Of a stretch of 64,000 nucleotides of DNA, positions 7,718 to 40,599 are shown piece after piece (within the stretch, counting starts at the first letter, position 1; each line of letters begins with the position of its first letter). The DNA comes from an uncultured Acidobacteriota bacterium. Its GTDB lineage: Bacteria > Acidobacteriota > UBA6911 > RPQK01 > JAPXNP01. A program made the translations under genes and the position numbers. Location: assembly GCA_963777605.1 (NCBI GenBank), contig CAVZRV010000028.1, forward strand, positions 177,412 to 241,411. The letters are read 5' to 3'. The notes beneath the pieces were generated by a model, which worked only from the letters and a program-made list of their open reading frames with translations, was not told the origin of the DNA and did not search any database.

Positions 7718-7755
7718 TGAGCAATTTTGACCACATTTCCGAGCAATTGTGACCT
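7718..7755 (+). promoter_or_regulatory. Tandem palindromic operator, copy 1
   Basis: TGAGCA-ATTT-TGACCA, 6 nt, CGAGCA-ATTG-TGACCT; TATACA at 7777-7782. Confidence 0.75.
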
Positions 7756-7858
7756 GAATCACAAAACGCCGTGCAGTATACAACGAGTGGAGCTTGATTG
7801 CCGCCCGCGGATTATACTCGTCTCAAGGCGGCCCAACGAGCTGATCGAGAGAGACGCT

Positions 7859-8071
7859 ATGCAAGAGCGAAGGGATGTCAGGAAGTTCTACGGGAGCCTT
7901 TCCGATTCGGAACTTATCTCTGTCTGGGCTTTGGGCAGGGACAGGGAAGACGATGTGGTGATGGCCGATGCCGAAGCTGAACTGGCCAGGCGGGGAACCC
8001 GGAGCGATGACCCCGAGGTTCGGCTCCGGACTCCGCGAGAATCAGTCGCCAGGACAAGAAGCCGCACCTGA
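7859..8071 (+). CDS. Small hypothetical protein (70 aa)
   Basis: ATG 7859 lies downstream of operator copy 1; the ORF ends inside a 30-bp palindrome; no recognised family. Confidence 0.45.
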   Translation: MQERRDVRKFYGSLSDSELISVWALGRDREDDVVMADAEAELARRGTRSDDPEVRLRTPRESVARTRSRT

Positions 8072-8089
8072 GGATCCTCAGGTGCGGCT
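8060..8089. terminator. Perfect 30-bp palindrome between convergent ORFs; probable bidirectional terminator
   Basis: AGCCGCACCTGAGGA/TCCTCAGGTGCGGCT. Confidence 0.55.
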
Positions 8090-8148
8090 CTCCGGCAAGG
8101 CAGGGATCGCTCGGGGAGGCTTTTGTCCCTGCTGCTCTCTGCAGACGG

Positions 8149-8340
8149 TTAAGTCCCCACACGGAGCCCGCTGAGGGAACTCAAAAAGCCGAAAACGCTG
8201 AGAAGCCACAGAACCACGCCAATGACTACCACCGCATTGAGGATTCTCTTGATTGTGCCCTGCATCGGGATGAACGTGTTTACCAACCAAAGTAGAACGC
8301 CGATTACAACCAGAATCATGACGAGTTGAAGTAAAGGCAT
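8149..8340 (-). CDS. Small two-TM membrane protein (Thivi_2564-like)
   Basis: VIGVLLWLVNTFIPMQGTIKRILNAVVVIGVVLWLLSVFG pattern; GGAGG RBS. Confidence 0.8.
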   Translation of the reverse strand: MPLLQLVMILVVIGVLLWLVNTFIPMQGTIKRILNAVVVIGVVLWLLSVFGFLSSLSGLRVGT

Positions 8341-8359
8341 GATGACCCTCCATTGTGTT

Positions 8360-8385
8360 GGGAGCGGGCCGCGACGGCCGCTCCC
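8360..8385 (-). terminator. GC-rich hairpin between the DUF3185-like and Thivi_2564-like genes
   Basis: GGGAGCGG(G)CCG-CGA-CGGCCGCTCCC; no U-tract. Confidence 0.35.
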
Positions 8386-8445
8386 GGTTTAGCACTGATA
8401 AAATAAAGCCTCAATGAGATTCGCCTTGTAACGGAAACCGCGCTA

Positions 8446-8673
8446 TTACAAAGCTCTTCGCTTCATTCCCACGACGAGCAGCGCAACTCCGCCGAGCAGG
8501 GCGAGTCCTCCGAGGATGGGCGGAACGGGAATGCGTTGCTGCGTTTCCGTCGTGGCTTGCAGCGGTCCGATATCAATCACCTTTTCCGTGCGTGTGTAAT
8601 TGATGCCCTGATAGGCGAGGGCCAGTGCACCAAGCACGATCAATACAATTCCAATCCACATAGTCGGTTTCAT
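8446..8673 (-). CDS. Small membrane protein (DUF3185-like)
   Basis: GIVLIVLGALALAYQGINYT..KVIDIGPLQAT...IPVPPILGG. Confidence 0.75.
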   Translation of the reverse strand: MKPTMWIGIVLIVLGALALAYQGINYTRTEKVIDIGPLQATTETQQRIPVPPILGGLALLGGVALLVVGMKRRAL

Positions 8674-8731
8674 TGCTTATATCTCCGTGGCCGGGCGATC
8701 TCTCTTCAGGATCGACTCCGGCCTTTCAAAG

Positions 8732-8760
8732 CCAGGCCGACGGGATTCCCATCGGCCTGG
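8732..8760 (-). terminator. Hairpin directly after the M48 peptidase stop codon
   Basis: CCAGGCCGA(C)GGG-ATT-CCC(A)TCGGCCTGG followed by CTTTG on the minus strand. Confidence 0.5.
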
Positions 8761-8763
8761 TAT

Positions 8764-10509
8764 TCATTGTCGAAAGCGAACTGAACGAAGCATGTTCTGA
8801 AATGTACTCTCATAATTCTTGAAGTCGCGATCGGGTGCGACGAACACCATGAAAAGCAGGCCTTCCGGTCGCTGAATCGTGACCAGCCAATTCGTTTCGC
8901 GACCTCCCAGCGGCGAGTCGTTGGTCAGATAGGTGGACTCAGCCCCCAGCCCGTCGATGCGGAAGTAATCAGGCTGGCTGACAATTCGCATCCCGGGATT
9001 GGAGTGGCTGAGTTCTTCAATCAAACCGCTCGTGGCTTCTTCGAGGCGTTGCTGTTCCTGCTGGTTCCCCCGGGAGGTTGCTCTCGAAGGCAGCCCGTAG
9101 CCTTCGGGTTGAAGCTGCTGACGGCCGCTGCGGTTAATGAGTGGCTCATAAATGTTCACGATGACGCCGTAAGCCAGGGCCTGGTTGCCCCGCCCGTCGT
9201 TGACCATGCCCCGATCGGGTACGATCGTGACGGTCACATCTCCCTGTCCGTACGCCTGCCAATTGTCCGGGTGATCGATACGGAAAGTGGCGTTTTCGAA
9301 ACTTCTCGAGCGATTTGAAGGCTGGTCAGGCTGAGTGTTGCCCTGTGGGTTGTTTCCTGACTGCTGCTGCTCGGTCGGAATCGAGATCCACTGATGTTCC
9401 TGAACCACCACGTCGTAGGTTCCGCCGCCCCACTGGTACCTGAGAAGAAGCGCTTTCGGCTCACTGATGGGATCACCGCCCATCGACGAGTTGGTCACCT
9501 GGAGGTTCAGGCGGCCGTCCTGCACCAGAGACTGCATGCGCTGGCCGACGTCGATGTATTTGTTCTTCGCACCGTAGCTTGCGCCCACGATCCGTAATTC
9601 CGATGTGGCGGGCGTGTTCCCCCGGGCGTTTCCCGTGCCGCTATTTGCCGGAGGCCCCGCGAGCGCCTGTTCGTACCGCTTGATGTCCTGGAAGTCCCGC
9701 GAATCGGTCTTCGCATTTCGCCGCATACCGCCGAGGTTGGCAATTTCCTCGTCCACACGCCCTTCGCGGTTCTCCGGGTTGGGGTGACTGGAGAAGAAGG
9801 CCGGCATCTGCCCGCCCTGGCTTTCCGCCTCAATCTTCTGGAAGAATTGGGCCATGGCCTGCGGGTTGTAGCCGGAATCGTAGAGGATTTGGGTGCCCAG
9901 AACATCGGCCTGGGTCTCAGCATCCCGTGAGTACTTCAGCAAGAGCGAGTCGGCCGCGAATCCTGCACCGAGTTGTGCCAGTATTGCAGCCGTCGAGTTG
10001 CTGCCCAGTGCACCTCCCAGGATGGCCAGCGGCACCTGAGCGATATAGGCTTTCGAGGCCTGGTTGGTGCCGTGGCGGAGCGCCACGTGGGCGATCTCGT
10101 GCGCGATCACGCCGGCGAGTTGCGCTTCATTATCGGCAGCGTCGAGCACCCCTCGGTTGACGTAAAGAAAACCCCCGGGCAACGCGAAAGCATTAATGGA
10201 CCGGTCGTTGACGACTTTGAACTGATAGGGATACTTCTCACCCGGGGCGTGGGCCGCCAGTTTCCGCCCCAGGTTGTCCACGTACTTGTCTACTTTTGAG
10301 TTGTTGAGCATCGGCTGCTGCTGCTCAGCCTCGACAGAGGTCTGCTGGCCCATTTCGACATCCTGCTGCACGGAAAACATGTTCCAACCGGGCTTCAGTT
10401 GCGTCCGGTCCGCCCAAACGAGCGGAGCCAGGAAAAGCATCAGCGCGGCCGCGAGCACTATTGAATGTTGCGTTGTTTTGCTGTTATTCACTGTTTGTTT
10501 CCTGTTCAT
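8764..10509 (-). CDS. Exported M48 family metallopeptidase with an internal DUF3395-like domain and a C-terminal domain
   Basis: Signal peptide; INAFALPGG, AHEIAH (HExxH), YSRDAETQAD and SSHP motifs. Confidence 0.9.
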   Translation of the reverse strand: MNRKQTVNNSKTTQHSIVLAAALMLFLAPLVWADRTQLKPGWNMFSVQQDVEMGQQTSVEAEQQQPMLNNSKVDKYVDNLGRKLAAHAPGEKYPYQFKVVNDRSINAFALPGGFLYVNRGVLDAADNEAQLAGVIAHEIAHVALRHGTNQASKAYIAQVPLAILGGALGSNSTAAILAQLGAGFAADSLLLKYSRDAETQADVLGTQILYDSGYNPQAMAQFFQKIEAESQGGQMPAFFSSHPNPENREGRVDEEIANLGGMRRNAKTDSRDFQDIKRYEQALAGPPANSGTGNARGNTPATSELRIVGASYGAKNKYIDVGQRMQSLVQDGRLNLQVTNSSMGGDPISEPKALLLRYQWGGGTYDVVVQEHQWISIPTEQQQSGNNPQGNTQPDQPSNRSRSFENATFRIDHPDNWQAYGQGDVTVTIVPDRGMVNDGRGNQALAYGVIVNIYEPLINRSGRQQLQPEGYGLPSRATSRGNQQEQQRLEEATSGLIEELSHSNPGMRIVSQPDYFRIDGLGAESTYLTNDSPLGGRETNWLVTIQRPEGLLFMVFVAPDRDFKNYESTFQNMLRSVRFRQ

Positions 10510-10578: not shown

Positions 10579-11517
10579 TCAATGGCGATAAGGCGGAACA
10601 TACTTCTGCAGGGACGAGATGAAAGGCCGAACGGTCGTATTCGTTCTCACTTTACCCCTGAGCAGGATGTCTTCCCCGGTCACCGGGCTGCCGTAGACCG
10701 CCTGGTTGGCGCTGTCATCCATCGTTATGCTGGCACCGGCCAGCGATACGCCTGCAAAAAGTCCCTTGCTGCGGGAGTAGGAGTAAATGGCAGAGCTGAG
10801 CGTGATGTCGGTTGCGCCACTGGCGGTTCTACCCACCGGTCCGGCTGCCACCGAGGCGTCTCCACCCAGGGTGAACTTTCCTTTGAGCAGCGGCTTCAGG
10901 CCGTCTTCATTGGTGAAGACCAGCACCAGATCGGTGGCTGAGCCTCCGATCTGAAAGCCCACACTTCCGCCGCCGATGGTGATAAAGGCGGGCGCTGACC
11001 AGTTGCCGGCTTCGGTCCGTCGGGCGATCAAGCCCTTGCCATATCGTCCACCCACGATGAACGCGCCCTTGACGACATGCGGGATAATGGCGATCGCGTG
11101 GGCTTTCTCGAGCAGATCTTCGGGGATCGCCTGGTCGGGAGCAGCCATGATTTCAGAGAGAACGCTTCCAGCTTTTGTGGCCCGATCGGCCTCGTCTTCA
11201 ACATTGGCCCGGGCAGGCTGGTCAACCCTGTCGGTGTAATAGCTTGCCTGCGGGTCCATTTTCACTCCCAGGGCTTCCTGGGTCTTCTGGTCGAGCATTC
11301 CGGTCGGCTCCAGGCTCTTGCTCTTTTGAAACTCCCGAATTGCAGATCCAGTCTGAGGTCCCATCACTCCGTCGACGGGCCCCGGGCTAAAGCCATTGTC
11401 CTTAAGGACCTGTTGAAGGTTCTGGATCGTTTGATCGGGACGGGCAGCCACAAGGGAGGCTGTCATCAGCGCCACGGTCATGAGAAACATGAAAAGCAAA
11501 GTGGATATCTTCTTCAT
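10579..11517 (-). CDS. Peptidoglycan-binding domain plus Ysc84/SYLF lipid-binding domain protein
   Basis: Signal peptide; LQQVL..GFSPGPVDGVMGPQT..AIREFQ; then KGAFIVGGRYGKG, GGSVGFQIGG, AAGPVGR and YSRSKGLFAG. Confidence 0.9.
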   Translation of the reverse strand: MKKISTLLFMFLMTVALMTASLVAARPDQTIQNLQQVLKDNGFSPGPVDGVMGPQTGSAIREFQKSKSLEPTGMLDQKTQEALGVKMDPQASYYTDRVDQPARANVEDEADRATKAGSVLSEIMAAPDQAIPEDLLEKAHAIAIIPHVVKGAFIVGGRYGKGLIARRTEAGNWSAPAFITIGGGSVGFQIGGSATDLVLVFTNEDGLKPLLKGKFTLGGDASVAAGPVGRTASGATDITLSSAIYSYSRSKGLFAGVSLAGASITMDDSANQAVYGSPVTGEDILLRGKVRTNTTVRPFISSLQKYVPPYRH

Positions 11518-11743
11518 TGTTATTCTCCTTGGGAGATTGGTGCTCCCTGAAATCTCACAGGTCTTTCTACACAAGAAGCTGATCGTTGCTCTGACTGTTG
11601 AGTCCCCAAACCCGGACAGTGAAGCAGAGCCCCGAGGATTATCGGGAAGACGATGAGCCTTCTGCCGATATCCGGCTCCAGTGAGATTGCCGACAGGTCG
11701 ATTACTGTCTTCTCCTTTTTACATCGCTGGCGAAGACGGTGTC

Positions 11744-11781
11744 AGTTCAGCATTGCTCTGAGTCCTGATCACATTTGCTCA
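11744..11781 (-). promoter_or_regulatory. Tandem palindromic operator, copy 2 (Ysc84-M48 genes)
   Basis: Gene strand TGAGCA-AATG-TGATCA, 6 nt, AGAGCA-ATGC-TGAACT-GAC; TAAAAA at 11721-11716. Confidence 0.8.
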
Positions 11782-12751: not shown

Positions 12752-15040
12752 TCACGGGCGCGGTGACGAGGTCGAACTCGCGGCCAACGTCGTGGGTCTG
12801 TCCGGCTCTGCCTCCGGCCGTGCCTGCGCTGCCAGGTATTCGTCGATCCCTTGCTCGATCTTGCGGGGGAACTTGGGAGCCGGTCCCACGAGCTGGTCGC
12901 GATAGACTCGGGACATGATTTCACGGAAGATCGGGAGCGCCGTGCGCCCACCGGTTTCTCTCGCGCCCAGCGTGCGGTTATCGTCGAATCCAATCCGGAC
13001 CGCCACGGTAATCCCCTCCGGTCCGTAAGTGGACCCCACGAACAGTGCGTCGCGGAAATCGCTCGTCGTTCCAGTCTTGCCCATCACCGGGACCGGGAAT
13101 CCACGCCCGTCAAGACTGTGTGCCGTTCCGTCCGGCAGTCGGACCACGCCTCGCAGCCCCTCCTGGATCAGGCTCAGGGCGGCGGAGTTGATTGGCTGAC
13201 CGGAAGGAGGGCCACTGTAAAGCAGCTCGCCAGAGGAGTCGCTCACGCTATCGATGACGTGGGGCTCGGCGAGGCACCCCGAAGCCATCGCGCGAAAGGC
13301 GTCCGCCAGCTCGAGCAAGCGCACTTCAGACGCGCCCAAAGCCGTTGCGATGTTGGGCTTGAGGGGGGTGCGTATTCCAAGCTCTTTCGCGGTCCTTAGC
13401 ACCGCTCGCAGGCCGATTTCGCGAGTGATCCATACCGCAACCGTGTTGCGGGACTCAGCCAGTGCCTGGCGGATCGGCATCGAACCTTTGAACTGATTAT
13501 CGTAGTTGCTGATCCACTTGCTATCCTGGTCGGCCCCCATGGGCACCTCGATGGGCTCGTCCGGCACGGTTGTCGTAAGGTCCAGTCCGCTCTCGAACGC
13601 GGCCAGGTAAACCAATGGTTTCAGTGCCGAGCCCGGCTGGCGCAGCGAGTCGGTGACACGGTTGTAGTCGGAATAGAGTGTATTCCTCGCTTCATAGAAC
13701 TGCCGTCCGCCGGCCTCGGCCAGGATTCCCGCATCGGCGTTACGCAACACCACCACAGATCCCTGGACCAACCCCTTGGACTTGGAATGCCGGTGCTCGT
13801 AGAGAGCGAGGCCGTTTTCGAGAGCTTCGTTCACGATCGTCTGGACCCGCCCGTCCAGCGTCGACCGGACCGAGATTCGACCCTGGATGAGGTCATCAAA
13901 CCCGAAACTGGATCCGCCGTGGAGTTTCAGCTCGCTGAGGACGCCGTTGATTGCAGCGGGGGCCTGGGTCTTGATCCGGCTGTGGGCCACCACGCGGATC
14001 GGCTCGGCCTGGCAGCGTTTCGCGAGTTCCCTGGTGATGTAGCCGTTGCGCACCATCAAATCCAGAATTTGGTTCCGGCGACGCAGGGGCCTCGGGTCAC
14101 CGGGAACCGGGGCATAGTCCTGGGGTGACTTCGAGATCCCCGCCAGCAGGGCAGCCTCTCCCGCGTCCTCCTGCGTATAGCTCGCGAGGGGTTTGCCAAA
14201 ATAGTAGTCGGAGGCGGCAGCGTAGCCATAGCGGCCGTTGCCGAGGTAAAAGAAGCTGGCCGAGCGGGCGAAAATCTCGCGCTTGGCTTGTTCCTGAGAT
14301 CCAAAGTGCCGGCGCATCTCTTCCTCCAGCCAGAGTGCAAGGCGCACCTCCTCCAGCTTGCGGAAGAGCTTGTTCGTGGCAGGTGCGCCGAGAAACAACG
14401 AGAAGAACCGTGGAGCCAGCCGTCTGCTGAAGAGGCTGGTGCCGGTCTCACGGCTTGTCAAGGCTTGCAGGAAGTAGCCGCGCACGAGTTGCTGCGTCAG
14501 CGTCGAGCCCCCTTGGGGAAGTCGCAGCCGGAACCCGGCGTCTCCCTTCCACCACCCGGTCACAGACCTCACCACCGTTTTCTCGATCACACGTGGCAGA
14601 GCCCGGTATTCCACGCCGGAATGAGAGAAGAAATTCTTGTCCTCGGCAGACAGGATCGCCTGACGCAGGATGACGGGCACGTCATCGTAAGAGACAACCT
14701 TGCGGTACTCCCCCGCCAGTTCGATCAGCACCTTGCCCTGCGCGTCATAGATTCTGCCGGTTGTAGGAGGCTCGAATCGGATGAAGGGCTCGAGGTCCGG
14801 GAGGGCGGTTCGATCGAAGTAGACGTAATGGATGAGTGCGCCCGGCAGGATGAGCAGGAGCAGCGCCAGGGAGGAGGCTGCAAGGAGCAGTACACGGCGC
14901 GACCAGGTGCGTGGCACGAGACGCACTATGAGGGCGCCCGCAGATCGAAGTCGGGAAGTGATTCGTGGCAACGCTCTGAAGGGGCCCTCCACGGGATCAT
15001 CCGCCTCGGGGGGGGCATGGGTCATGGGACTCGTGGGCAT
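12752..15040 (-). CDS. Class A penicillin-binding protein (transglycosylase/transpeptidase, PBP1A-like)
   Basis: TM anchor; AEDKNF, GGSTLTQQL and RKLEE; RQPGSALKP (SxxK), SRN and KTGT. Confidence 0.9.
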   Translation of the reverse strand: MPTSPMTHAPPEADDPVEGPFRALPRITSRLRSAGALIVRLVPRTWSRRVLLLAASSLALLLLILPGALIHYVYFDRTALPDLEPFIRFEPPTTGRIYDAQGKVLIELAGEYRKVVSYDDVPVILRQAILSAEDKNFFSHSGVEYRALPRVIEKTVVRSVTGWWKGDAGFRLRLPQGGSTLTQQLVRGYFLQALTSRETGTSLFSRRLAPRFFSLFLGAPATNKLFRKLEEVRLALWLEEEMRRHFGSQEQAKREIFARSASFFYLGNGRYGYAAASDYYFGKPLASYTQEDAGEAALLAGISKSPQDYAPVPGDPRPLRRRNQILDLMVRNGYITRELAKRCQAEPIRVVAHSRIKTQAPAAINGVLSELKLHGGSSFGFDDLIQGRISVRSTLDGRVQTIVNEALENGLALYEHRHSKSKGLVQGSVVVLRNADAGILAEAGGRQFYEARNTLYSDYNRVTDSLRQPGSALKPLVYLAAFESGLDLTTTVPDEPIEVPMGADQDSKWISNYDNQFKGSMPIRQALAESRNTVAVWITREIGLRAVLRTAKELGIRTPLKPNIATALGASEVRLLELADAFRAMASGCLAEPHVIDSVSDSSGELLYSGPPSGQPINSAALSLIQEGLRGVVRLPDGTAHSLDGRGFPVPVMGKTGTTSDFRDALFVGSTYGPEGITVAVRIGFDDNRTLGARETGGRTALPIFREIMSRVYRDQLVGPAPKFPRKIEQGIDEYLAAQARPEAEPDRPTTLAASSTSSPRP

Positions 15041-16744: not shown

Positions 16745-16817
16745 TTCTCACATCCTTTTTTCTGAAGCAATTTGATGGGTACGAGTGTGGTTATACGTTG
16801 AGTGCCGGTGGCGCGTC

Positions 16818-16855
16818 AGTTCAGTACGGCTCAGGAGGACGGTCAAGTTTGCTCA
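16818..16855 (-). promoter_or_regulatory. Tandem palindromic operator, copy 3 (OmpA-PBP genes)
   Basis: TGAGCA-AACT-TGACCG, 6 nt, TGAGCC-GTAC-TGAACT-GAC; TATAAC at 16795-16790. Confidence 0.85.
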
Positions 16856-16882: not shown

Positions 16883-16920
16883 TGAGCTCTATTGACCGGA
16901 TCTCTGAGCGTTACTGAACA
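16883..16920 (+). promoter_or_regulatory. Tandem palindromic operator, copy 4 (LPQTA protein), divergent from copy 3
   Basis: TGAGCT-CTAT-TGACCG, 6 nt, TGAGCG-TTAC-TGAACA-GAC; GAGAAT at 16942-16947. Confidence 0.85.
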
Positions 16921-17063
16921 GACACGCGGCCGCCCCCAGGGGAGAATGCCTCTAAGGATCAGCAAGCGATGGCTGAACGCTCCTGCAGCAGATAGACAAG
17001 AATTGAACTGCGACGGACCGGATTCATCCAAACACGATCCCCACTTAACAAGGAAGGTCTTAA

Positions 17064-19795: not shown

Positions 19796-19824
19796 TTGAC
19801 AGCGGAGAGAGTATTGGGTACACT
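19796..19824 (+). promoter_or_regulatory. Near-consensus sigma70 promoter of the Crp/Fnr gene
   Basis: TTGACA-17 nt-TACACT. Confidence 0.7.
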
Positions 19825-19942: not shown

Positions 19943-20599
19943 GTGGCGAATATGCGATGCCCTGTTGTCGATTGGTCAGTATCCCTTTCCGGCATCCCCG
20001 AGTTAAGAGTTCTCGAATACGGCGCGAGCCGCACGGTTTATTGGGAAGGAGACTCGGCGGATTCGGTGCTCTTTCTCCAGCGCGGCAAATTGAAGCTGTC
20101 AGTTACTTCGAAGCAGGGCAAAGAGGCCATTATTGCGATACTGGACGACGGTGACTTCTTTGGCGAGGGTTGCCTCATTGGTCAACCCCTGCGCATGGCG
20201 ACGGCGACCGCACTCACCGATTGCAGCCTGATCCGGCTGGAGAAGAGCCTGATGCAGCGGCTTCTCCACGAGAAGCACGAGATCTCTGAAATATTCGTGT
20301 CCCATCTGCTGTCCCGCAATATCCGGTATGAAGCGGACCTCGTTGATCAACTCTTCAACTCGAGCGAGAAGCGCCTGGCCCGGATCCTGTTATTGCTGTC
20401 CCATTTCGGAAAAGAGAGCAAGACTGAGCCCGTCCTTCCCAGGATCAGCCAGGAGGATCTGGCCGAAATGGTCGGCACGACCCGCTCGAGGGTCAGTCAT
20501 TTCATGAACAAGTTCAGGAAGTTGGGCTTTATCGACTATGGCGACGAAGGAGGCCTGTCGGTCAATAGCGGCCTCCTGGGCGTGGTTCTTCACGATTAG
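19943..20599 (+). CDS. Crp/Fnr family transcriptional regulator
   Basis: cNMP-like domain (GDFFGEGCL..R.ATA), EKRLAR, HTH ISQEDLAEMVGTTRSRVSHFMNKF; start may be ATG 19952. Confidence 0.92.
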   Translation: MANMRCPVVDWSVSLSGIPELRVLEYGASRTVYWEGDSADSVLFLQRGKLKLSVTSKQGKEAIIAILDDGDFFGEGCLIGQPLRMATATALTDCSLIRLEKSLMQRLLHEKHEISEIFVSHLLSRNIRYEADLVDQLFNSSEKRLARILLLLSHFGKESKTEPVLPRISQEDLAEMVGTTRSRVSHFMNKFRKLGFIDYGDEGGLSVNSGLLGVVLHD

Positions 20600-23052: not shown

Positions 23053-23180
23053 TGAAGTCCTCCTGTTAAGCGTTTCAGCCTGAATCCCGGGCAGCGGAAT
23101 TTTTCGAGGCCGGATACGCCCGGCTGCTCGCCCGGCAGCTCAACGCATTCCTATTTATAGCCCCGGCTCACGAGGGTGTC

Positions 23181-23218
23181 AGTTCAGGTTGGCTCATACG
23201 GTTGGTCAAAACTGCTCA
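23181..23218 (-). promoter_or_regulatory. Tandem palindromic operator, copy 5 (dodecin)
   Basis: TGAGCA-GTTT-TGACCA, 6 nt, TGAGCC-AACC-TGAACT-GAC; overlapping CTGACA-17 nt-TATAAA. Confidence 0.85.
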
Positions 23219-31717: not shown

Positions 31718-31901
31718 CGCGCACTCCTCGCCCGTTCACAGGCCCGACAGATATTGTGAATTACCTCAATCCCATTCGTCTTTCCTGGGTGGCCGTTCTC
31801 GCCTTTGCCCCGACCGTCTGGCCCGTTTCAGACAGTTACAGCCCCTTTCTTTTCAGCCAGTCCGTGTTATCGGCACTGTACGATTGAGCTGGTTCCCGGT
31901 C

Positions 31902-31939
31902 AGTGCAGAAGGAATCGCTGGTGTGGTCAAAATTGCTCA
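31902..31939 (-). promoter_or_regulatory. Tandem palindromic operator, copy 6 (nucleotidyltransferase, possibly reading into the N-ATPase operon)
   Basis: TGAGCA-ATTT-TGACCA, 6 nt, CGATTC-CTTC-TGCACT-GAC; TACAGT at 31880-31875. Confidence 0.75.
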
Positions 31940-32403
31940 CCCGGGTCAGTGGCGGGCACTGAGGCCCATCATCAATGGCCCCTTCGGTTTTTCTCGCCTC
32001 GCGAAGGGAAACACGGACCTGGGAGGGAAACCTGTAAGTCGCTGAAAAGCAGATGATTGGAGTGCGTCCACGGTCCTGATCGACCAAGAGCTTCATCCCT
32101 TTGGAACGACGGAGTCTTCCGGCGCGACAGGCTGCACTGGAAAGGGAAGCTGGGCGAGAAATCGTCCTCGCCCAGCGGCATGCCGTAGCGTTCGGCCCGG
32201 CATTTATCGGTAGAAACGTTCCGGAACATGGATGCCCGAAACGGGGGGGCCTAAACCGGAAACCCGAAGTTAGGGGGATCCAGCATGGCGAAGTTCAAGC
32301 CGTCAGTTATCCACCGTTGACAAGCTGATGCGACCTTTCCGAGCCACGAGATGGTGGTTCGGTGGCACACTCCCTCTTTTTACTCCCGGGCCGGTCCCGT
32401 GTC

Positions 32404-32441
32404 AGTTCAGTAATGCTCAAGCGCCCGGTCAAAACTGCTCA
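32404..32441 (-). promoter_or_regulatory. Tandem palindromic operator, copy 7 (no recognised gene directly downstream)
   Basis: TGAGCA-GTTT-TGACCG, 6 nt, TGAGCA-TTAC-TGAACT-GAC; TAAAAA at 32382-32377. Confidence 0.8.
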
Positions 32442-33318: not shown

Positions 33319-34239
33319 TTACCCCTTCCTGAAAAATGAGGTTTTACTCGGAACGCGGTCACCTTTCTGTCGCAATTCCTCAAGAAAATAGGCAAACTCG
33401 CCTCCCAAAACGAGAATCATTGAGGAGTAATAGACCCATACGACGAAGATGACCAGAGTGCTGAATGAGCCATAGAAAAGGGAGTACCTGGCGAGATGGA
33501 TGATATACCAGGCGAAGATATGTTTGGCCAACTCCCAGAGCAGACCAGTAAAAAGAGCCGCCTGAAAGATAGTTTCAAAGTGCAAACTCCTATTAGGAAT
33601 GACTTTGTAGACCAAGAAAAAAACGCCACAGGTCGAGACGAGAGGGAGGATGTATTCTAATATCCATTCAAGAATAGGTCCTATCTCCACGAGAATCTGT
33701 CCGCGGTAACTTTGGAGGAAACTGGCGAATACGCTAATACTCATACTTACAACGAAGAGAGATCCAGCCAGGAGAATCATGAGCAGATCAATGCCGATTG
33801 CGTGCAGAAATTTCCGGCTCTTCTCCACGCTGAACACGATATTGAGAGCGATCCGCAGCGAGCCGAAGACGAATGTGGAAAACCAGACTAGGACTACAAA
33901 CCCTAAGACCCCAACAATCCGACGCTTCTCGATGATGGCCAGCAGGTCTTGCGTAATTCTTGAATCCAGGGCAGGAGATACAATTCTGAGATTTGCGCTA
34001 ATGTGATCGACTACAGCCTGGTCGTTGTAGAGGTAACTCGCAATGAATGCGGATAGAAGCAAGATGAGAGGGATCAGGTTGATCAGGATATTGAAAGCAA
34101 TTCCGGAAGACAGGAAGAAGCCGTTGTCACCGATGAATTTTCCGATAGCCTCCCGCAGGAGCCCGAATTTCCTGAGAAACTGTTCGAGTTGTCTGAATCT
34201 CCCGGCGGCAGTCTCCGCCACTGTGAAGGTGTCTTTCAA
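33319..34239 (-). CDS. YihY/BrkB family membrane protein
   Basis: SSGIAF..L, VYKVIPN, LWELAK..FAWY, YGSF and WVYYSS.ILVLGGE. Confidence 0.9.
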   Translation of the reverse strand: MKDTFTVAETAAGRFRQLEQFLRKFGLLREAIGKFIGDNGFFLSSGIAFNILINLIPLILLLSAFIASYLYNDQAVVDHISANLRIVSPALDSRITQDLLAIIEKRRIVGVLGFVVLVWFSTFVFGSLRIALNIVFSVEKSRKFLHAIGIDLLMILLAGSLFVVSMSISVFASFLQSYRGQILVEIGPILEWILEYILPLVSTCGVFFLVYKVIPNRSLHFETIFQAALFTGLLWELAKHIFAWYIIHLARYSLFYGSFSTLVIFVVWVYYSSMILVLGGEFAYFLEELRQKGDRVPSKTSFFRKG

Positions 34240-34318: not shown

Positions 34319-35374
34319 CTATTGCTTCGGTCCTCTCAACTTTTCGACCTCCTCATTCCTGGTTCCTTGTCCGAGCAGGACGGCAAACTTTCGTGACTCC
34401 TCATGACTCCCCAGTGCAATCACGACAAGGCTGGTCATGGGCACCGAGAGAACCATGCCCAGTGGTCCCAGTACCCACCCCCAGAAGACCAGGGAAAGAA
34501 AGACAACGAGTGTCGATAATCTCAAGCGCCTGCCCATCAGCTTTGGCTCCAGGAAAATGCTGAAGACGACATTAATCGCCGCAATGCCGAAGAGGGTCAG
34601 AAGGGCGAAGCCCAGCCCGCTCGTAAGAAGAGCGATCAGAAAAGGAGGAAGGGCGGCAATGACGGAGCCGACATTGGGCACATAGTTCAGCAGAAACGCG
34701 AGCGTTCCCCAGAGCACAGGGTAATCAACTCCGAGCAGGAGAAGCCAAAGCCAGATCGCCAGGCCGGTGCCCGCGCTGATCAGAGTCTTGATGACCAGAT
34801 AGCTCTGCGCGTTCCGGCTGAATTGCTCCATCGTGGTGAGATGCCTCTCGGGGTCCGAAAACGCGACTCGCATCTTTTCCGGCAATTCCGCCACCTCCAG
34901 AAGGATGAACACGACCGTAATCAGGATCAGAAACGCATTGGTGAAGACGGCGCTCAGGGTCGAGAAGATGTCTCCTGCAAGGTTCATCACCCATCCCGGG
35001 TGGAAAGCACCGGACAACTCCTCCACTGGAATTTGAATGCCCCTCCTGTGCAATTGACTTATCGTGGCATCGATACCGGTCGTGAGTTGCTCTTGATAGC
35101 CGGGCAGGGAATTCAGGAAATGATTCAGCGAAAGGCTGATCAACGCTCCAAAGGAGAATCCCACAACCAGGATGACCGCCAGAATGGAAGCAAGGGCAAG
35201 GATCTTCGGCACGCCCTTGCTTCGCATCCAGAACAACGGTGGGGCGCAAATGACCGCAATAAAGACCGCCAGAAGAAAGGGAACCAGAATGGGGCTGGCC
35301 GCCTTCATTCCCGCCACCAGGATGACAAAACTGGCCAGGAGTAATGGCAGCGGTATCTTGGCCGTGGGATTCAC
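34319..35374 (-). CDS. AI-2E family transporter
   Basis: AFLLNYVPNVGS, EPKLMG and FWGWVLGPLGMVLSVPMT. Confidence 0.9.
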   Translation of the reverse strand: MNPTAKIPLPLLLASFVILVAGMKAASPILVPFLLAVFIAVICAPPLFWMRSKGVPKILALASILAVILVVGFSFGALISLSLNHFLNSLPGYQEQLTTGIDATISQLHRRGIQIPVEELSGAFHPGWVMNLAGDIFSTLSAVFTNAFLILITVVFILLEVAELPEKMRVAFSDPERHLTTMEQFSRNAQSYLVIKTLISAGTGLAIWLWLLLLGVDYPVLWGTLAFLLNYVPNVGSVIAALPPFLIALLTSGLGFALLTLFGIAAINVVFSIFLEPKLMGRRLRLSTLVVFLSLVFWGWVLGPLGMVLSVPMTSLVVIALGSHEESRKFAVLLGQGTRNEEVEKLRGPKQ

Positions 35375-35460: not shown

Positions 35461-35697
35461 TCACTTACGCACTGAAGAGCGGGCCTCGTGAGCGGATTCC
35501 TTCAGAGCCGCGGACCACTCGTCAGCCTGCTTTTCGGCTTCCTGCTTCGCAATCCCGTACCGCTCCTGAATTTTTCCCACCAGGTTCTCCTTTTTCCCCG
35601 CGGCCGTCTTGAAGTCATCGTCCGTGAGCTTGCCCCAGCGTTCCCGGGCGGACCCTGCAAACTGTTTCCATTTTCCTTCAATCTGATCCCAGTTCAT
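35461..35697 (-). CDS. CsbD family general stress protein
   Basis: [13 protein letters not shown]...WGKLTDDD...[12 protein letters not shown]. Confidence 0.93.
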
Positions 35698-35740: not shown

Positions 35741-36400
35741 CTAGATCTCGTATGCTTGGTGATCACGACTCTGATCCGATGCTGCGACCACTGCGACCTC
35801 TTCCTCTTCATCCACCGCAACGTCGGGCAAGGCGCCCTCAGGCGCGGCGGCGATTGTCCTGCCACTCCTGATGTAGTTCACTGCGGCCTCTCCGGTCGAC
35901 GAAATATCCTGTGCTCCCGTCCTCTCCAGGATGTCCTGGGCGCGCTTCGTCCAGTCGGGATTGTCCGAATGGACCGACAGGAGGATTCCGCCTTCCTTCA
36001 CTCGGATTTCATAACGCTTGGCCTGGTGTTCGGGGATCCCGAGGCCGATCAGGGCGCCCGTTATCCCGCCTACTGCGCCGCCCACGCCAATTCCAGCGAG
36101 AGCTGCCATCAGTGGACCGGCTGCGATGACGGGACCTAACCCCGGAATCGCCAGGGCGCCAATGCCCACCAGCCATCCGAGTGTTCCGCCCAGCAGCGCA
36201 CCCGTTCCGGCTCCTGCGACCGCGCCCTCGGGAGCCCGGGTCCCTTTGTCACGGGCGAATTCCTTGGAGCCCGCCCTTTGCGGAAACAGTACGGAGATAT
36301 CCGTGTTTCGGAAGCCAGCCTCCCTCAAGACGTCGACGGCGTTCTCGACGCTCGAGTAATCTTTGTAAATGCCCAGTACGGCAGTCTTTTTGTGAGCCAT
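35741..36400 (-). CDS. General stress membrane protein (DUF3341/YflT-like, glycine zipper)
   Basis: AVD.L..AGF.N.DISVL, GLGPVIAAGPL, GLGIPE and GGILLSVH; AGGAG RBS. Confidence 0.8.
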   Translation of the reverse strand: MAHKKTAVLGIYKDYSSVENAVDVLREAGFRNTDISVLFPQRAGSKEFARDKGTRAPEGAVAGAGTGALLGGTLGWLVGIGALAIPGLGPVIAAGPLMAALAGIGVGGAVGGITGALIGLGIPEHQAKRYEIRVKEGGILLSVHSDNPDWTKRAQDILERTGAQDISSTGEAAVNYIRSGRTIAAAPEGALPDVAVDEEEEVAVVAASDQSRDHQAYEI

Positions 36401-36617
36401 GTTGCAGTCTCCTTTGAGAAGTCTTCTGATTTGTTTGCCCTGCTTGACGCCAACTTCATCATCCGGCCGAAGGCTGCGAGGACCATCGATCGAGCCGGTC
36501 CTGTCGTCCCCGACTTCTGGATCTGATTTCCCGGTTCTCTTCGCCAAGGCTCGCTGGAGCGGTGTCGCAGGTGATTTTGTTCCTCTGTCTTTTTTACTCC
36601 CAGGGGGGCGGCATGTC

Positions 36618-36655
36618 TGTTCGAAGCTGCACAGATACCTGGTCAATATTGATCA
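36618..36655 (-). promoter_or_regulatory. Tandem palindromic operator, copy 8 (stress protein-CsbD genes)
   Basis: TGATCA-ATAT-TGACCA, 6 nt, TGTGCA-GCTT-CGAACA-GAC; TAAAAA at 36596-36591. Confidence 0.8.
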
Positions 36656-36696: not shown

Positions 36697-38172
36697 TCAG
36701 GTCACTCGCTTGAAGTCGATGAATCCGCGTTCCACATCCGTGCGGAGCAGTTGAACGCGGAGCTGGTGCCCGACATCCATTCCGTCAAACCCGTTCACCA
36801 GCTTTCCTTCAATCGGCGGCTGCAGAAGACGGACCCAGGTGCCTTTGTCCGATGCGCCCGTGACGATGGCATCGAAGCGCTCCCCGATTCTTGATTCCAC
36901 CAGTATTGCTGCTGCGGATTTTGTGACCTGTCGTTCAACCTTTTTGGCCACGTCTTCCTCCGCGGTGCAGTGCTTTGCGAGCCCTTCCAGTTCATCGTTC
37001 TCGTAAGGCGCGGGCCGTCCCGCCAATGCCGCTTTCAGCAACCGTTGTGTAATCAGATCGGGGTAGCGGCGGTTCGGGGCGGTGGAGTGAGTATAGTCCT
37101 TCACAGCCAGGCCGAAGTGCCCGGCTGCACTGGTTCCAGGAACGTGGACAATATACTCACCCGGGCCCAGCAATTTGACAACACTGAGCGATAGGTCGGG
37201 AAAGCGGAGAGGATCCCCGGCTTTCGCAGCCACCAGGAATTGCTCCAAGGCCATGGCGGAGGGTTCCCCGGGCAACGTCGAGCCCCGTTCCGCGGCAAGT
37301 TCGATGATCCGGTCCCAGCGTTTAGGTGTGCGCACCACGCGCCGCAGGGATGGAAACGTCCTGGATTCGAGGTATCGTGCCGTGACCCCATTCGCGGCAA
37401 TCATGAAGTCCTCAATGATATCCTTCGCCCGGTTCCGCTCGTCGGCTGCCAGGTCCTTGAGTTTCTCCCCTACAAAGACCGGGCGGGCTTCGATTGTTTC
37501 GAGATTAAGCGCACCGTGGAGGTGGCGGAGCGCTTTGAGACGGTGCGCGAGACGGTCCTGAAGCCGAAGGTTCTCCTCGAGGCCCTGGACGGCACCGATC
37601 TCTCCGGGCATCGGCCCGTGGTCCTCGATCCATGCGGCAACGCTGTTATACGCAAGCTTCGCATGATTGCGGACCGTCGCTCGATAGACGTCTGAACTCT
37701 GAAGTGATCCGTCTCCGGAGAGAACCATTTCAATCACGATGGCCAGCCGGTCTGATTCGTAGTTCAGTGAAGTCAGATCCGTGGAGAGCTTTTCGGGGAG
37801 CATCGGGAATGTCTCGGCAACCGTGTAGACTGAGGTGGTATTTTGCCGCGCATGATCGTCAATTGCTGATCGATTCTTGACGATGGCATCGACGTCGGCA
37901 ACGGCGACCAGGATTTTTGCGGCTCCGTTGGCCATCGATTCGGCAAAGGTCAGTTGATCCAGATCACGCGAGTCATCGTTGTCGATGGAACACCACAGCA
38001 GCTCTCTCAGATCGCGCGTCGATTTCCCGGTTTGCGCCGCCGGTCCGTCGATTTTGTCGAGTTCGGCAAGCGCCGCCGCGGAAAAATCAGGAGCAAGTCC
38101 TTTTTCGAGCATCACCCGATGGGCAATTCTCTGCAGGGTCGAGCGCTGCTGTCCATGGTTCGAGTTCGTCAT
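36697..38172 (-). CDS. RNB-domain ribonuclease (RNase II family)
   Basis: SIDNDDSRDLDQ, PMLPE.LS, IEDFMIAAN, HFGLA and YTHSTAPNRRYPDL. Confidence 0.92.
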   Translation of the reverse strand: MTNSNHGQQRSTLQRIAHRVMLEKGLAPDFSAAALAELDKIDGPAAQTGKSTRDLRELLWCSIDNDDSRDLDQLTFAESMANGAAKILVAVADVDAIVKNRSAIDDHARQNTTSVYTVAETFPMLPEKLSTDLTSLNYESDRLAIVIEMVLSGDGSLQSSDVYRATVRNHAKLAYNSVAAWIEDHGPMPGEIGAVQGLEENLRLQDRLAHRLKALRHLHGALNLETIEARPVFVGEKLKDLAADERNRAKDIIEDFMIAANGVTARYLESRTFPSLRRVVRTPKRWDRIIELAAERGSTLPGEPSAMALEQFLVAAKAGDPLRFPDLSLSVVKLLGPGEYIVHVPGTSAAGHFGLAVKDYTHSTAPNRRYPDLITQRLLKAALAGRPAPYENDELEGLAKHCTAEEDVAKKVERQVTKSAAAILVESRIGERFDAIVTGASDKGTWVRLLQPPIEGKLVNGFDGMDVGHQLRVQLLRTDVERGFIDFKRVT

Positions 38173-38217
38173 ATCGCTAGCTCCGCTCCGGAACGGGAGA
38201 TTTCTCCCGTGCTGTTC

Positions 38218-38255
38218 ATTTCAGAAAGGGACAGCGCTCTGGTCAAAACTGCTCA
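38218..38255 (-). promoter_or_regulatory. Tandem palindromic operator, copy 9 (RNase; proximal site degenerate)
   Basis: TGAGCA-GTTT-TGACCA, 6 nt, TGTCCC-TTTC-TGAAAT; no -10 at the expected position. Confidence 0.5.
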
Positions 38256-39071
38256 GGTCGGTCGTGGGACGAATGTGGCGGTCAGCGGAAGGTCGCTGAC
38301 GGATGAATCGGTGCCGGGAGCGATCCCGGCCTTCGGGGTCTCCGCCACCCCCTTTCGGCAGGAGGCCACAACGGGTTCGGAGATCCGATATTCCACGTTC
38401 TGCGAGTGCATCGTGTAGGGGCCGAGTACCCGGACCGTGGCCGTTACTTCCATATTTGTCTGCAGCCACATGCCGCTCACGTCGCCGTAGAGGAGCGTGA
38501 TGCGCACGTCCCGGAGCCACCATGAGGGAGACTTGGCAGGCTCGGCCCGGATGCGACCGGGCAGGTAGGTAGCGGCATCGATCCAGATGTTTCCTCGGAG
38601 CAGGCTCTTGTCCTCCCGTCGCGGCAGCAACTCGAGTTCGTAGTAGCGCCGGCCGCCTACATCTGCTTCACGGATAAATCTGAAATCGTAATTGTTTGCC
38701 GAAAAGTCGGTCAGGGCGTAATCCTTTGAGATATTGACTTCGCCTGCGAGAGTGCGGCGAACGATGCTCTTCCCCAGGAGCGAGCCGTCCGCCCTCCGGA
38801 TGGCGTACTGCTTGGTGTCCGGGGGAGTAAACGTCACATCGGCAATGACCTGGGCCTTGGATTTCTCTTTGTCCCGGCCAAACAGCCGGTAGTCGCGCGT
38901 AACGGCGTAGGGGCGAAAACAGGCCTGGTTCCCAGCCCGAGCCTCGGCCATTCGGGCGATGATGGTATCGACGCTGGGGATCGCGCTGCCCGCTTGGGCC
39001 GAAACGTCACCCCCGATGACGGCAACCAGGAGGGAACAAAGGATCCAGAATGTGCTTCGCCGCATAGTCAT
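38253..39071 (-). CDS. Exported protein, LolA/RseB-like fold suspected
   Basis: Signal peptide; L.L.PRR....L.G.IWIDA...P.R..A.PAKSPS pattern. Confidence 0.65.
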   Translation of the reverse strand: MTMRRSTFWILCSLLVAVIGGDVSAQAGSAIPSVDTIIARMAEARAGNQACFRPYAVTRDYRLFGRDKEKSKAQVIADVTFTPPDTKQYAIRRADGSLLGKSIVRRTLAGEVNISKDYALTDFSANNYDFRFIREADVGGRRYYELELLPRREDKSLLRGNIWIDAATYLPGRIRAEPAKSPSWWLRDVRITLLYGDVSGMWLQTNMEVTATVRVLGPYTMHSQNVEYRISEPVVASCRKGVAETPKAGIAPGTDSSVSDLPLTATFVPRPT

Positions 39072-39098
39072 TGCCTCTAAGCCTTTCTCACGCTCGCT

Positions 39099-39870
39099 TC
39101 AACGGGAATCCTTCTTGGCAGTTGGCTCATCGACCCAGTATTCCTGGCGATCGTAGTGTCGATGCAGCCTGGTCTCGTAATCCCGATCCAGCAGAGTCTC
39201 CTCCGTGTATTCGGGCGACTGCTTGATGCTCTCACCCGAGAGATTGACGAAGACTGTCGACTCGGCCCAACTCAAGCTCTCGATCCATTGGGGTGAAATC
39301 AGAACCTTCTTCCCCGACCACCAGTTCCGTGTGTTGATGATGAGATAACGAATCGACCACGCCTCGTCATCGATGATGAAATCCTCGACGTGACCAATCT
39401 CGCCGTCTGTAGCTTGAACGTCGTAGTCACTCACCTCGTGAGTGCTCCGCAAATGGGGATCCCATGACTTCTCGCTTTGAGTGCATGCGCTCCACTTTTC
39501 ACGGTCACGCACAATGTTGGGAAAGGGTCCCCACACGTATGAGCCGCCCCAGTACGCCGGGTATCCATAAAACCCGTAGTAGGCTCTCTCGAATTGCTCC
39601 GATACGGGCTTGTCACTGCTCAAGGAAGGACTGTCCTCAATCTGTTTCTTGGTCAAATCGATATCTATGTGTTGCCTTATCCTGACTCACGGCAGTCAAT
39701 GCATACGGGGAAATCAGAACCTGCTTGCCGGTGAGCCAATTGCCTGTGTCGCCAACCAGATAGCGAATCGTCCAGTACTGATCATCGAAGTAGAACTCCT
39801 GGATTTTCCCGATTTCCCCATCAAGGCTGTGCAATGTGTAACCTCGTAGCACCTTCGCTTTGTTCAACAT
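39099..39870 (-). CDS. PRC-barrel domain protein (two barrels; frameshift ~39676)
   Basis: DGEIGKI.EFYFDD..WTIRYLV..TG.WL.G.QVLISP in ORF 39637-39939 and the repeated domain in ORF 39099-39656. Confidence 0.9.
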
Positions 39871-39961
39871 CTTAGGCTTTCCCTCATCTTGCGTTTCCGT
39901 GTCGCCATCCGTCACAATCGTTGCCCACTTGTGAATCATCGCTCATGCGACGAGGCCTGTC

Positions 39962-39999
39962 TGTTCAGTACCGATCACTGTTTTGGTCAATTGTGACCA
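39962..39999 (-). promoter_or_regulatory. Tandem palindromic operator, copy 10 (PRC-barrel gene)
   Basis: TGGTCA-CAAT-TGACCA, 6 nt, TGATCG-GTAC-TGAACA-GAC; GATGAT at 39940-39935. Confidence 0.8.
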
Positions 40000-40062
40000 G
40001 CGGGAAGGTCAGCATGATCACCGCCCGCCGGACAGAGGACTTGGAGTTGATCCACGAAGGTA

Positions 40063-40437
40063 TCAGCCGGGATTCCCTTCGATGCTCTCGGGGGATGAAG
40101 TTTCCACTATTCTGGCCTGGGTGCCCGAATCACCGGTTCTGATGGCAACTTTCACTGCATCTTCCATCGGATCTTTGAAGGGCACTTCGATTCGGAGCAG
40201 GCCGTGTTCATAGGTCGCTTCGGCTTTGACAGGTTTCACCGGCCAACCTAAAGCCAGAGCTGCCACATACTCGACGTCCCTTGCCGGCGCCGTGAGATGG
40301 ATGCTGTCTTCCAGGATCTTCACGTCGACGGTGTCCGTAGGGGCTCCCGGGATGGCGAACTCTACGACCAGTTTGTGGTTCTCCGCGTCTGCATACGCGA
40401 CCGTATTCGGTGCAACCTTGATTCGATATTTCGACAT
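40063..40437 (-). CDS. Hsp20/alpha-crystallin family protein
   Basis: IPG, AEATYEHGLLRIEVP; GGAGG RBS before ATG 40437. Confidence 0.85.
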   Translation of the reverse strand: MSKYRIKVAPNTVAYADAENHKLVVEFAIPGAPTDTVDVKILEDSIHLTAPARDVEYVAALALGWPVKPVKAEATYEHGLLRIEVPFKDPMEDAVKVAIRTGDSGTQARIVETSSPESIEGNPG

Positions 40438-40561
40438 TTTGAATATCCTCCCGTGCGCGCAGAAACCGACGTCTGACTTGACCGCCGATTTGACTGCCAG
40501 ACGCAGTTTCATTCAGTTTACGCTTGCCCGATTCAGTATCGACGACCATCGGGAAAGGTTA

Positions 40562-40599
40562 AGTGCACAATGGCACATCTGACTGTGCACAATTGCACA
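40562..40599 (-). promoter_or_regulatory. Tandem palindromic operator, copy 11 (Hsp20)
   Basis: TGTGCA-ATTG-TGCACA, 6 nt, TGTGCC-ATTG-TGCACT; GATACT at 40540-40535. Confidence 0.7.

Follow-up and report, generated by a model that had tools for sequence, protein, structure and literature searches.

Tandem Crp-type boxes ahead of 22 promoters suggest a general-stress or dormancy-like regulon in an uncultured Acidobacteriota bacterium

How much of a regulon, and of the protein that controls it, can be read from the DNA of an uncultured bacterium? The question is raised by a stretch of 64,000 nucleotides from a soil-type Acidobacteriota genome (contig CAVZRV010000028.1, positions 177,412 to 241,411; this whole stretch is called the window here), in which the original prediction had listed eleven copies of a double operator and had assigned them to a protein of the Crp/Fnr family encoded in their midst, the gene for which we call crp below. 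We followed up this arrangement by motif scans of the genome and of related genomes, by alignment of the sites found and by comparison of the regulator with its orthologs. Judged from these sequences, the 43-nt module rather probably represents a variant of class II/III Crp-type activation, through which a general-stress or dormancy-like regulon would be controlled.

Read toward the downstream gene, the module as found in the window runs TGAGCA-N4-TGACCA, N6, TGAGCn-N4-TGAACT, GACA. All eleven listed sites were found at the coordinates given for them (for minus-strand copies the start listed is the leftmost plus-strand position of the box pair), and nine or ten of these fit the layout closely; the copies at 31902 and 38218 carry a degenerate proximal box, and the copy at 40562 is a TGTGCA-N4-TGCACA variant that is oriented to a minus-strand gene for an Hsp20-like protein. 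The claim that there are no copies beyond 41 kb proved wrong, as a twelfth copy is present at 44158-44200 on the plus strand (42.2 bits), which brings the total for the window to 12. The motif had further been said to point at the downstream gene, and a same-strand open reading frame (ORF) indeed follows 12 of the 12 window sites as well as all 22 of the sites found in the genome; -10-like hexamers also stand at the place described for them in ten of the eleven listed copies, with 38218 as the exception. The distance of 22 bp between the two boxes was recovered, both in this genome and in related loci, when each box was represented by a matrix of its own: box pairs in this genome were offset by +22 bp in 18 of 22 cases, by -22 bp in three and by -30 bp in one, and 52 related loci gave 92 pairs at +22, 33 at -22 and none at other offsets, with no pairs at all in the control. 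We read the pairs at -22 as boxes that match each other's matrix. A lone 16-mer box with up to three mismatches gave 70 matches compared to a mean of 52 in shuffled sequence, a value of 70 being reached by one in 100 shuffles; the single box is thus near chance and the signal resides in the composite.

The composite was searched for with two 43-nt matrices, the first of which was built from ten window sites and used at a threshold of at least 18 bits, whilst the second drew on 103 non-redundant sites, taken from this genome and its relatives, and was used at a threshold of at least 10 bits; the reversed matrix served as control. In the 6.73-Mb genome the first matrix found only 22 places, and the second returned the same 22 sites, the lowest at 21.4 bits and the other 21 at 30 bits or more. 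Both matrices were partly trained on sites from this genome and the scores of those sites are therefore inflated, but the gap below the lowest-scoring sites and the empty control are unaffected by this: the reversed second matrix gave no matches at any threshold across the 6.73 Mb. The genome-wide scan thus places the composite far beyond chance and widens the regulon to 22 promoters, which fall into four clusters. The motif is also far from being equally frequent in coding DNA, with 20 of the 22 sites outside open frames of at least 200 codons, inside which 86% of 2000 random positions were found to lie. Orphan single boxes of the distal type (at least 18 bits) numbered six in this genome against two control matches, and the best of them, C6:73287, was taken as a chance match given its position inside a 414-aa ORF. 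A pattern scan of 201 genomes from across the phylum, allowing up to one mismatch, detected real modules only in genomes G000, G002 and G007, together with four further single matches that do not have the proximal TGAGC; Rfam gave no family match within the window.

How the module relates to the promoter becomes visible in the alignment of the 103 sites, columns 44 onward of which played no part in site choice. The logo reads a TGAGCAATTTTGACCA gAcgtg TGAGCAgTACTGAACTGACAC, with the distal box at positions 1-16 and the proximal box at 23-38 of a 38-bp composite, followed by G39, A40 and C41 (conserved in 98, 101 and 97 sites, respectively) and by T60 and A61 (77 and 82 sites). The best -10-like hexamer, TAtAAa, starts at position 60 in 75 of the 103 sites and at position 61 in a further 15, and hence begins 21 or 22 nt past the proximal box in 90 of them. 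A -35-like cTGACA occupies positions 37-42 and is separated from TAtAAa by a spacer of 17 nt, sometimes 18, and it can be read directly from the sequence that the proximal box overlaps its first two bases. Each box spans 16 bp in the 5-6-5 arrangement known from CRP sites and bears TG and CA at its outer ends, and each is a partial palindrome (TG..CAA/TTG..CA) in which five of eight pairs match; summed per position, the distal box holds approximately 23.8 bits of information compared to 20.1 bits for the proximal one. Assuming a start some 7 nt after the -10 element, the proximal box would be centred at -41.5 and the distal box at -63.5. Of the class II geometry that had been proposed, the fixed distance to the -10 element and the overlap with the -35 element were reproduced, whilst the value of -41.5 itself is one that we infer from sequence. 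The site had also been described as a non-canonical double site: it is double, but the box is not very non-canonical, exhibiting the 5-6-5 size and a partial palindrome here and a full palindrome in some lineages.

The protein proposed to read these boxes combines a Pfam cNMP_binding domain (PF00027, residues 25-110, E = 3.9e-20, 72 bits compared to a cut-off of 27.5) with an HTH_Crp_2 domain (PF13545, residues 143-200, E = 1.1e-11). Its nearest solved relative is the CRP of Mycobacterium tuberculosis (E 4.8e-18, aligned over residues 19-199), and the genome holds no other close copy, the next matches having 27-30% identity. Members of the FNR subgroup carry four cysteines, three N-terminal and one central, for a [4Fe-4S] centre; the present protein has three cysteines only (residues 6, 77 and 94) and reaches 24.9 bits with the NCBIfam Fnr model, the cut-off of which is 228. 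CRP proper is characterised by a phosphate-binding cassette with Glu and Arg-Ser/Thr and by a recognition helix R-E-x-x-x-R that reads TGTGA. In the cassette found here, FGEGCLIGQPLRMATA, Glu and Arg are kept and Met follows the Arg, the helix reads RSRVSH, and the NCBIfam CRP model gives 54.3 bits against a cut-off of 266. Of 93 aligned orthologs, 72 conserve the cassette FGEGC...R and 67 have the recognition helix TTRSR[VI]SHFMNKF without any change. The genome encodes five class III cyclase domains, all outside the four clusters.

That this protein and the module belong together is suggested by their joint occurrence in relatives. Exact-pattern sites are present in eight of 41 related genomes, which are kin so that these counts overstate independence, and all eight are among the nine genomes with a full-length ortholog of at least 72% identity; the ninth, G004, carries a two-mismatch module approximately 200 bp from its crp. 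In genome G015 an ortholog fragment of 55 aa (82% identical) at a contig end is accompanied by a two-mismatch site. No exact site was found in the remaining 31 of the 41 genomes (the unpublished G018 among them), although G008, G017 and G021 have one match each with a single mismatch, as printed lacking the proximal TGAGC. A scan of public genomes yielded 411 relatives, from which 77 loci were kept, nearly all of them metagenome-assembled Acidobacteriota, and adjacency was counted in the 52 loci with an ortholog of at least 62% identity. A module lies within 6 kb in 41 of these 52 loci, for which chance would lead one to expect approximately 0.04 modules per locus (from a genome-wide density of one site per 300 kb); in 13 loci it precedes crp by less than 450 bp, both being on one strand, and in 15 it stands just after crp. 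When 873 ORFs from crp-ortholog loci were clustered, no other gene family was present in more than ten of the 52 loci: NarL-type regulators occurred in five, sigma-70 factors in four and KaiC in four.

Beyond this group, orthologs of 54-66% identity are found in Nitrospirota, Methylomirabilota, Rokubacteria, Pseudomonadota and another branch of the Acidobacteriota, and the double module is absent from the loci of these distant orthologs in the set that we compiled (36 loci, 391 kb, with more distant orthologs or no module). Single-box matrices nevertheless gave 74 matches in this set against one in the control, a number in which palindromes and the use of two matrices lead to repeated counting. 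A typical distant locus contains one box followed by GAC(A) directly after crp, a -10-like element again standing 21 nt away from the box, and the boxes include the perfect palindromes TGAGCA-N4-TGCTCA, TGTGCA-N4-TGCACA and TGTTCA-N4-TGAACA. The recognition helix is retained by most distant orthologs from other phyla. Where it takes the variant form TTRPRxSFF (loci L118 and L120 and one of the two copies in L105), the half-sites are TGTTC or TGGTC and not TGAGC, which hints at co-variation of helix and half-site, albeit in three loci only and with L090 as a counter-example. In a FastTree phylogeny of the 93 orthologs, which has a midpoint root only and labels of 'tandem' and 'single-box' that depend on 6-kb flanks, a clade of 65 rows with a support of 99 holds 52 of the 54 'tandem' rows, and the 27 rows on the other side hold 20 of the 24 'single-box' rows. 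Tree and loci show the double site as an apparently derived feature of one clade. Only five residues (R30, S41, I114, S159 and G210, in the numbering of the local protein) are specific to the 'tandem' clade, and as a guide to a dimer-dimer surface they support no conclusion. Co-occurrence, adjacency, the distant boxes and the tree taken together give comparative support to the assignment of the local Crp/Fnr protein, which is likely to be the binder and is the best candidate by a wide margin; that it 'co-activates', as had been stated, is a step that we infer from the rigid position of the boxes only.

On the mechanism that we propose, the module would be a composite activator site fused to a promoter of the sigma-70 type, and both boxes would be bound by the single close Crp/Fnr protein in the form of two neighbouring dimers that share a face of the helix. 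The better-conserved distal box would act as an anchor that helps to load the weaker proximal box, a role that it probably plays given its information content and the two sites that exhibit degenerate proximal boxes, and the dimer on the proximal box would make the class II contact with RNA polymerase. An activator that touches RNA polymerase is suggested by the combination of the fixed 22-bp offset, the fixed distance to the -10 element and the strict orientation. One signal could in this manner switch on 22 promoters in four gene clusters together. Two of the modules in the window (16813-16855 and 16883-16925) stand back to back with 27 bp between their distal boxes, and if the model holds, four dimers would occupy approximately 113 bp of DNA (16813-16925) and drive divergent envelope operons. 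A bolder version, which we put forward tentatively and with somewhat less than even confidence, starts from an uncharacterised Crp/Fnr subfamily of soil-type metagenomes that is shared across Acidobacteriota, Nitrospirota, Methylomirabilota, Rokubacteria and Pseudomonadota; in a single large clade of the Acidobacteriota it would have become the master switch of physically clustered genes for general stress or dormancy, acting there as an obligate dimer of dimers (anchor at -63.5, contact at -41.5). If this version is true, the regulator would do for the phylum what SigB, RpoS or DosR do elsewhere, and its mechanism would be one of the Crp family that is set by cooperativity between adjacent dimers and not by class I contact.

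A number of observations weigh against activation by paired Crp dimers. The bases that break the symmetry of the boxes are themselves conserved (G at position 4 in 99 and A at position 13 in 98 of the 103 sites), and conserved asymmetry would hardly be expected where a homodimer occupies a two-fold site; the boxes can moreover be read as direct TGAnCA hexamers at offsets 0, 10, 22 and 32, and such a direct-repeat layout is also expected of response regulators. Directly upstream of crp in this genome there is no box but a set of sigma-70-like hexamers of its own, so that autoregulation would here need read-through from the module at 16883, which may take place. No module was found within 6 kb in 11 of the 52 ortholog loci, and the kinship of the 41 genomes has already been mentioned. 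The sole RNA run found, metatranscriptome X1, yielded a small share of words and contigs that are mostly 90-95% alike and hence from relatives; these cover parts of csbD, the PRC-barrel genes and hsp20, with no starts or strands readable. The -35 element is near consensus (five of six positions), so that an activator might be dispensable at these promoters and the protein might act as a repressor. At -63.5, CRP of Escherichia coli affords approximately 4-fold class I stimulation compared to approximately 760-fold at -61.5 (PMC6301791); a plain class I role is thus far from evident for the distal dimer, which would act mainly through cooperative loading of the proximal box. At the whiB1 promoter of M. 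tuberculosis, CRP1 at -58.5 activates and CRP2 at -37.5, 21 bp away, represses (PMC2844151).

These points bear on two alternatives, in the first of which the same Crp protein would exert two-phase or negative control: the high-affinity distal box would activate or be neutral as long as the regulator is little active and a filled proximal box would shut the promoter, or the pair would repress otherwise competent promoters until released by stress. The whiB1 precedent (PMC2844151) and the poor performance of E. coli CRP at -63.5 (PMC6301791) would be in keeping with such a scheme. So would the near-consensus -35 (cTGACA) and -10 (TAtAAa) elements, the greater information content of the distal box (approximately 23.8 versus 20.1 bits) and the two window sites with a perfect distal and a degenerate proximal box, whilst the module upstream of crp in 13 of 52 loci is compatible with either sign of control. 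Sites for repressors, however, are usually tolerant of varied positions, and here 90 of 103 sites have a -10 element 21 or 22 nt past the box, with the two boxes set at a constant 22 bp; in addition, the lone box of the single-box lineages is found at the proximal and not at the distal position, where it is accompanied by a poorer -35 element (caGACA) and a weaker -10-like element, as fits dependence on an activator. We therefore regard negative or two-phase control as unlikely.

The second alternative replaces the binder, with a response regulator of the OmpR/PhoB, NarL or LytTR type sitting on the four direct TGAnCA hexamers as two head-to-tail dimers and crp being merely a member of the regulon. 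The repeats do match in five of six positions where the palindrome matches in five of eight pairs, with the asymmetric positions among the best conserved; the hybrid histidine kinase gene at 44886-48188 has an upstream module; and a NarL-type regulator and a HisKA_3 kinase are found near crp orthologs in five and four of the 52 loci, respectively. Yet the NarL-type gene is absent from the other 47 loci, the annotated stretches around the four clusters encode no DNA-binding response regulator and the hybrid kinase is without an output domain. The lone true palindromes beside crp in other phyla also fit a Crp dimer and not four tandem monomers, the tandem layout follows a clade of the Crp tree, and the TTRPRxSFF helix variants go together with changed half-sites (in three loci, L090 being contrary), and for these reasons we hold a response regulator to be quite improbable. 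Very similar 43-nt stretches, 22 in number and with 13 of them within 57 kb, could finally be a dispersed repeat, be it a copied promoter cassette or a small mobile element. Conservation is nevertheless confined to the columns of the boxes and the -35 and -10 elements, with variable N4 and N6 spacers and flanks; there are no terminal repeats, orthologous genes elsewhere keep the module, the orientation always follows the downstream gene and Rfam has no match in the window, all of which makes a repeat scarcely credible.

The genes that follow the modules in the window are collected in Table 1. Elsewhere in the genome, modules lead zwf-HAD-tal, DUF5670 together with a giant gene resembling GH94 cyclic glucan synthases, two B12-binding radical SAM enzymes, FtsH, and YflT with UPF0182. 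For the genes that follow the 22 modules the description 'stress, envelope and ATPase genes' is accurate, and the list reads like that of a general-stress or dormancy programme. Several targets keep their module in other genomes, namely the OmpA-like gene in eight of eight sources, the LPXTG-like gene in four of four and the radical SAM gene in seven of 13, and in three of four sources the Hsp20-like ortholog comes first behind a module. The B12-binding radical SAM enzyme is unnamed and, of the partners of the regulator, is the one most widely retained: it follows crp directly behind a single box in four distant loci (L103:3671-5263, L108:3855-5426, L112:6929-8491 and L121:6920-8515), where it has approximately 525 aa, and it stands behind tandem modules in this genome (L002:8851-10917 and L003:802-2199). 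NCBIfam provided no name for this enzyme or for the small unknown proteins, all scores being far below the cut-offs.

Further observations concern individual genes of the window and of the regulon. An ORF resembling S30AE/HPF (24175-24543, minus strand, E = 2e-8) is placed between the alpha and gamma genes of the N-ATPase, an unusual position for a hibernation-factor-like gene. A fragment similar to E1-E2 ATPases (43850-44164, minus strand) is found just upstream of a complete P-type ATPase gene (41206-43890), and it sits in a 366-codon open frame that also spans the twelfth module. Split genes include those for a phosphoketolase (5254-5907 / 5944-7626), the ATP synthase gamma subunit (23287-23784 / 23687-24178), the AAA_16 NTPase in three pieces (20910-22726) and the GH94 glucan synthase (L002:11320-19999); the split frames may be indel errors of the assembly or real pseudogenes. 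One metatranscriptome contig from a relative extends over 39472-40537, from hsp20 to the PRC-barrel genes, a region that contains the module at 39957-39999; 230 nt within hsp20 (40080-40311) are missing from this contig.

Around the crp orthologs of relatives, signalling genes recur that encode KaiC, KaiB and STAS anti-anti-sigma proteins (some of these directly behind a module), SpoIIE/PP2C phosphatases, a sigma-70 factor of 533 aa and a NarL-type two-component pair (loci L064, L075, L076, L085, L092, L093, L053 and L001:1-660), which may point to a connection with partner-switching or clock-like signalling. Several relatives possess paralogs of the regulator side by side, among them genome G014, in which six close copies of 74-82% identity are divided between two clusters (L049 and L054). 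A clade-B crp with tandem modules also occurs in bins labelled Acidimicrobiia and Aminicenantales (L059 and L070), the crp copies of L070 being identical to those of the Terriglobia locus L071; these loci may reflect mis-binning or recent transfer.

Table 1. Modules, regulator gene and clusters of the putative regulon, with the genes that each window module leads (aa, amino acids; nt, nucleotides)
Feature	Position	Strand	Score (bits)	Sequence features and remarks	Genes led
Module	7718..7760	+	44.2	ends GAATC; -10-like TATACA at expected place	conserved small ORF of ~100 aa (7727-8071 frame); ORF family module-led in 2/3 sources
Module	11739..11781	-	48.3	TAAAAA one nt later than modal place	Ysc84/peptidoglycan-binding protein (10579-11574), M48 peptidase (8764-10509)
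Module	16813..16855	-	50.7		OmpA-family protein (15161-16744), class A penicillin-binding protein (12752-15154)
Module	16883..16925	+	49.9	GAGAAT at expected place	LPXTG-like protein (17064-17804), VWA protein (18051-19085), sortase (19063-19758)
crp hexamers	19796..19824	+		sigma-70-like TTGACA, 17 nt, TACACT; consensus match only	
Crp/Fnr-family regulator, candidate binder	19943..20599	+		218 aa	
Module	23176..23218	-	55.0	TATAAA at expected place	AAA_16 (STAND-type) NTPase, apparently split into three frames (22726 down to 20910)
Module	31897..31939	-	37.0	degenerate proximal box; TACAGT at expected place	nucleotidyl transferase (30774-31577), complete N-ATPase operon (30553 down to 23287)
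Module	32399..32441	-	57.9	top score; TAAAAA at expected place	small ORF (31972-32229)
Module	36613..36655	-	42.2	TAAAAA at expected place	301-aa protein (35741-36646; clusters with YflT-domain protein L004:12785-13471), CsbD (35461-35697), AI-2E transporter (34319-35374), BrkB-family protein (33319-34239), 295-aa ORF
Module	38213..38255	-	32.1	perfect distal, degenerate proximal box; no -10-like hexamer at expected place	RNase II (36697-38172)
Module	39957..39999	-	38.3	GATGAT at expected place	two PRC-barrel-like proteins (39637-39939, 39099-39656), LolA-like protein (38253-39071)
Variant module	40557..40599	-	21.4	weakest member; TGTGCA-N4-TGCACA twice	Hsp20-like protein (40063-40512)
Twelfth module	44158..44200	+	42.2	inside long minus-strand open frame	188-aa ORF (44298-44864), PAS hybrid histidine kinase (44886-48188)
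Cluster C28	164.8-221.6 kb			13 sites, 12 of these inside the window	
Cluster C29	23-38 kb			4 sites	
Cluster C31	207-214 kb			4 sites	
Cluster C11	247.6 kb			1 site	

Acidobacteriota are among the most abundant soil bacteria, and to our knowledge there is almost nothing in print on how they control the survival of stress. No earlier description of the motif or of its regulator was found in the full-text literature, subscription journals and regulon databases being outside the search. With a single regulator gene, a 43-nt signature specific to exactly 22 promoters and a dormancy-like gene list, the hypothesis is complete and open to testing from sequence alone, and the signature could serve to annotate this regulon in the many uncultured genomes in which the ortholog is found. 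A tandem rule that holds all promoters to a fixed 22 bp is uncommon in the Crp family, and the tandem modules would thus offer a natural system for cooperativity between adjacent Crp dimers.

Among known systems, class II and class III promoters of E. coli CRP and FNR share with the present one the cyclic nucleotide-binding (cNMP) barrel and Crp helix-turn-helix, the 16-bp box of 5-6-5 type, the centre at an inferred -41.5 with a two-base overlap of the -35 element and a second, here putative, dimer upstream on the same face. The recognition helix of E. coli CRP is RETVGR and its half-site TGTGA, in contrast to RSRVSH and the half-sites TGAGC/TGGTC/TGTTC found here, and where upstream CRP sites in E. 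coli are optional and lie at about -61.5, -71.5, -82.5 or -92.5, the second site is here immediately adjacent (22 bp, a predicted -63.5) and obligatory throughout the regulon. NtcA provides the best NCBIfam match of the regulator, at 58.6 bits and thus far below the cut-off of 245. In class II promoters of NtcA the box lies approximately 22 nt from a -10 element of the TAN3T type and is centred near -41.5, and a Crp-family protein with a fixed distance from box to -10 is what both systems have in common; NtcA, however, reads GTA-N8-TAC, which usually replaces the -35 element, whereas the modules described here keep a conserved GACA remnant of the -35 and a double site. In gene content, CsbD, YflT, Hsp20, S30AE-like, envelope and protease genes under one promoter signature resemble the SigB regulon of Bacillus and the DosR regulon of mycobacteria, and DosR promoters often carry more than one box; as the present regulator belongs neither to the sigma factors nor to the NarL-type response regulators, this resemblance would be an analogy of function and not a matter of family membership. 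A parallel in layout is offered by M. tuberculosis CRP (Rv3676) at whiB1, where two adjacent sites also lie on the same face and the upstream one has the higher affinity (PMC2844151). That arrangement concerns a single promoter and a spacing of 21 bp, whilst in the Acidobacteriota clade a spacing of 22 bp, with predicted centres at -63.5 and -41.5, appears as the rule for an entire regulon.

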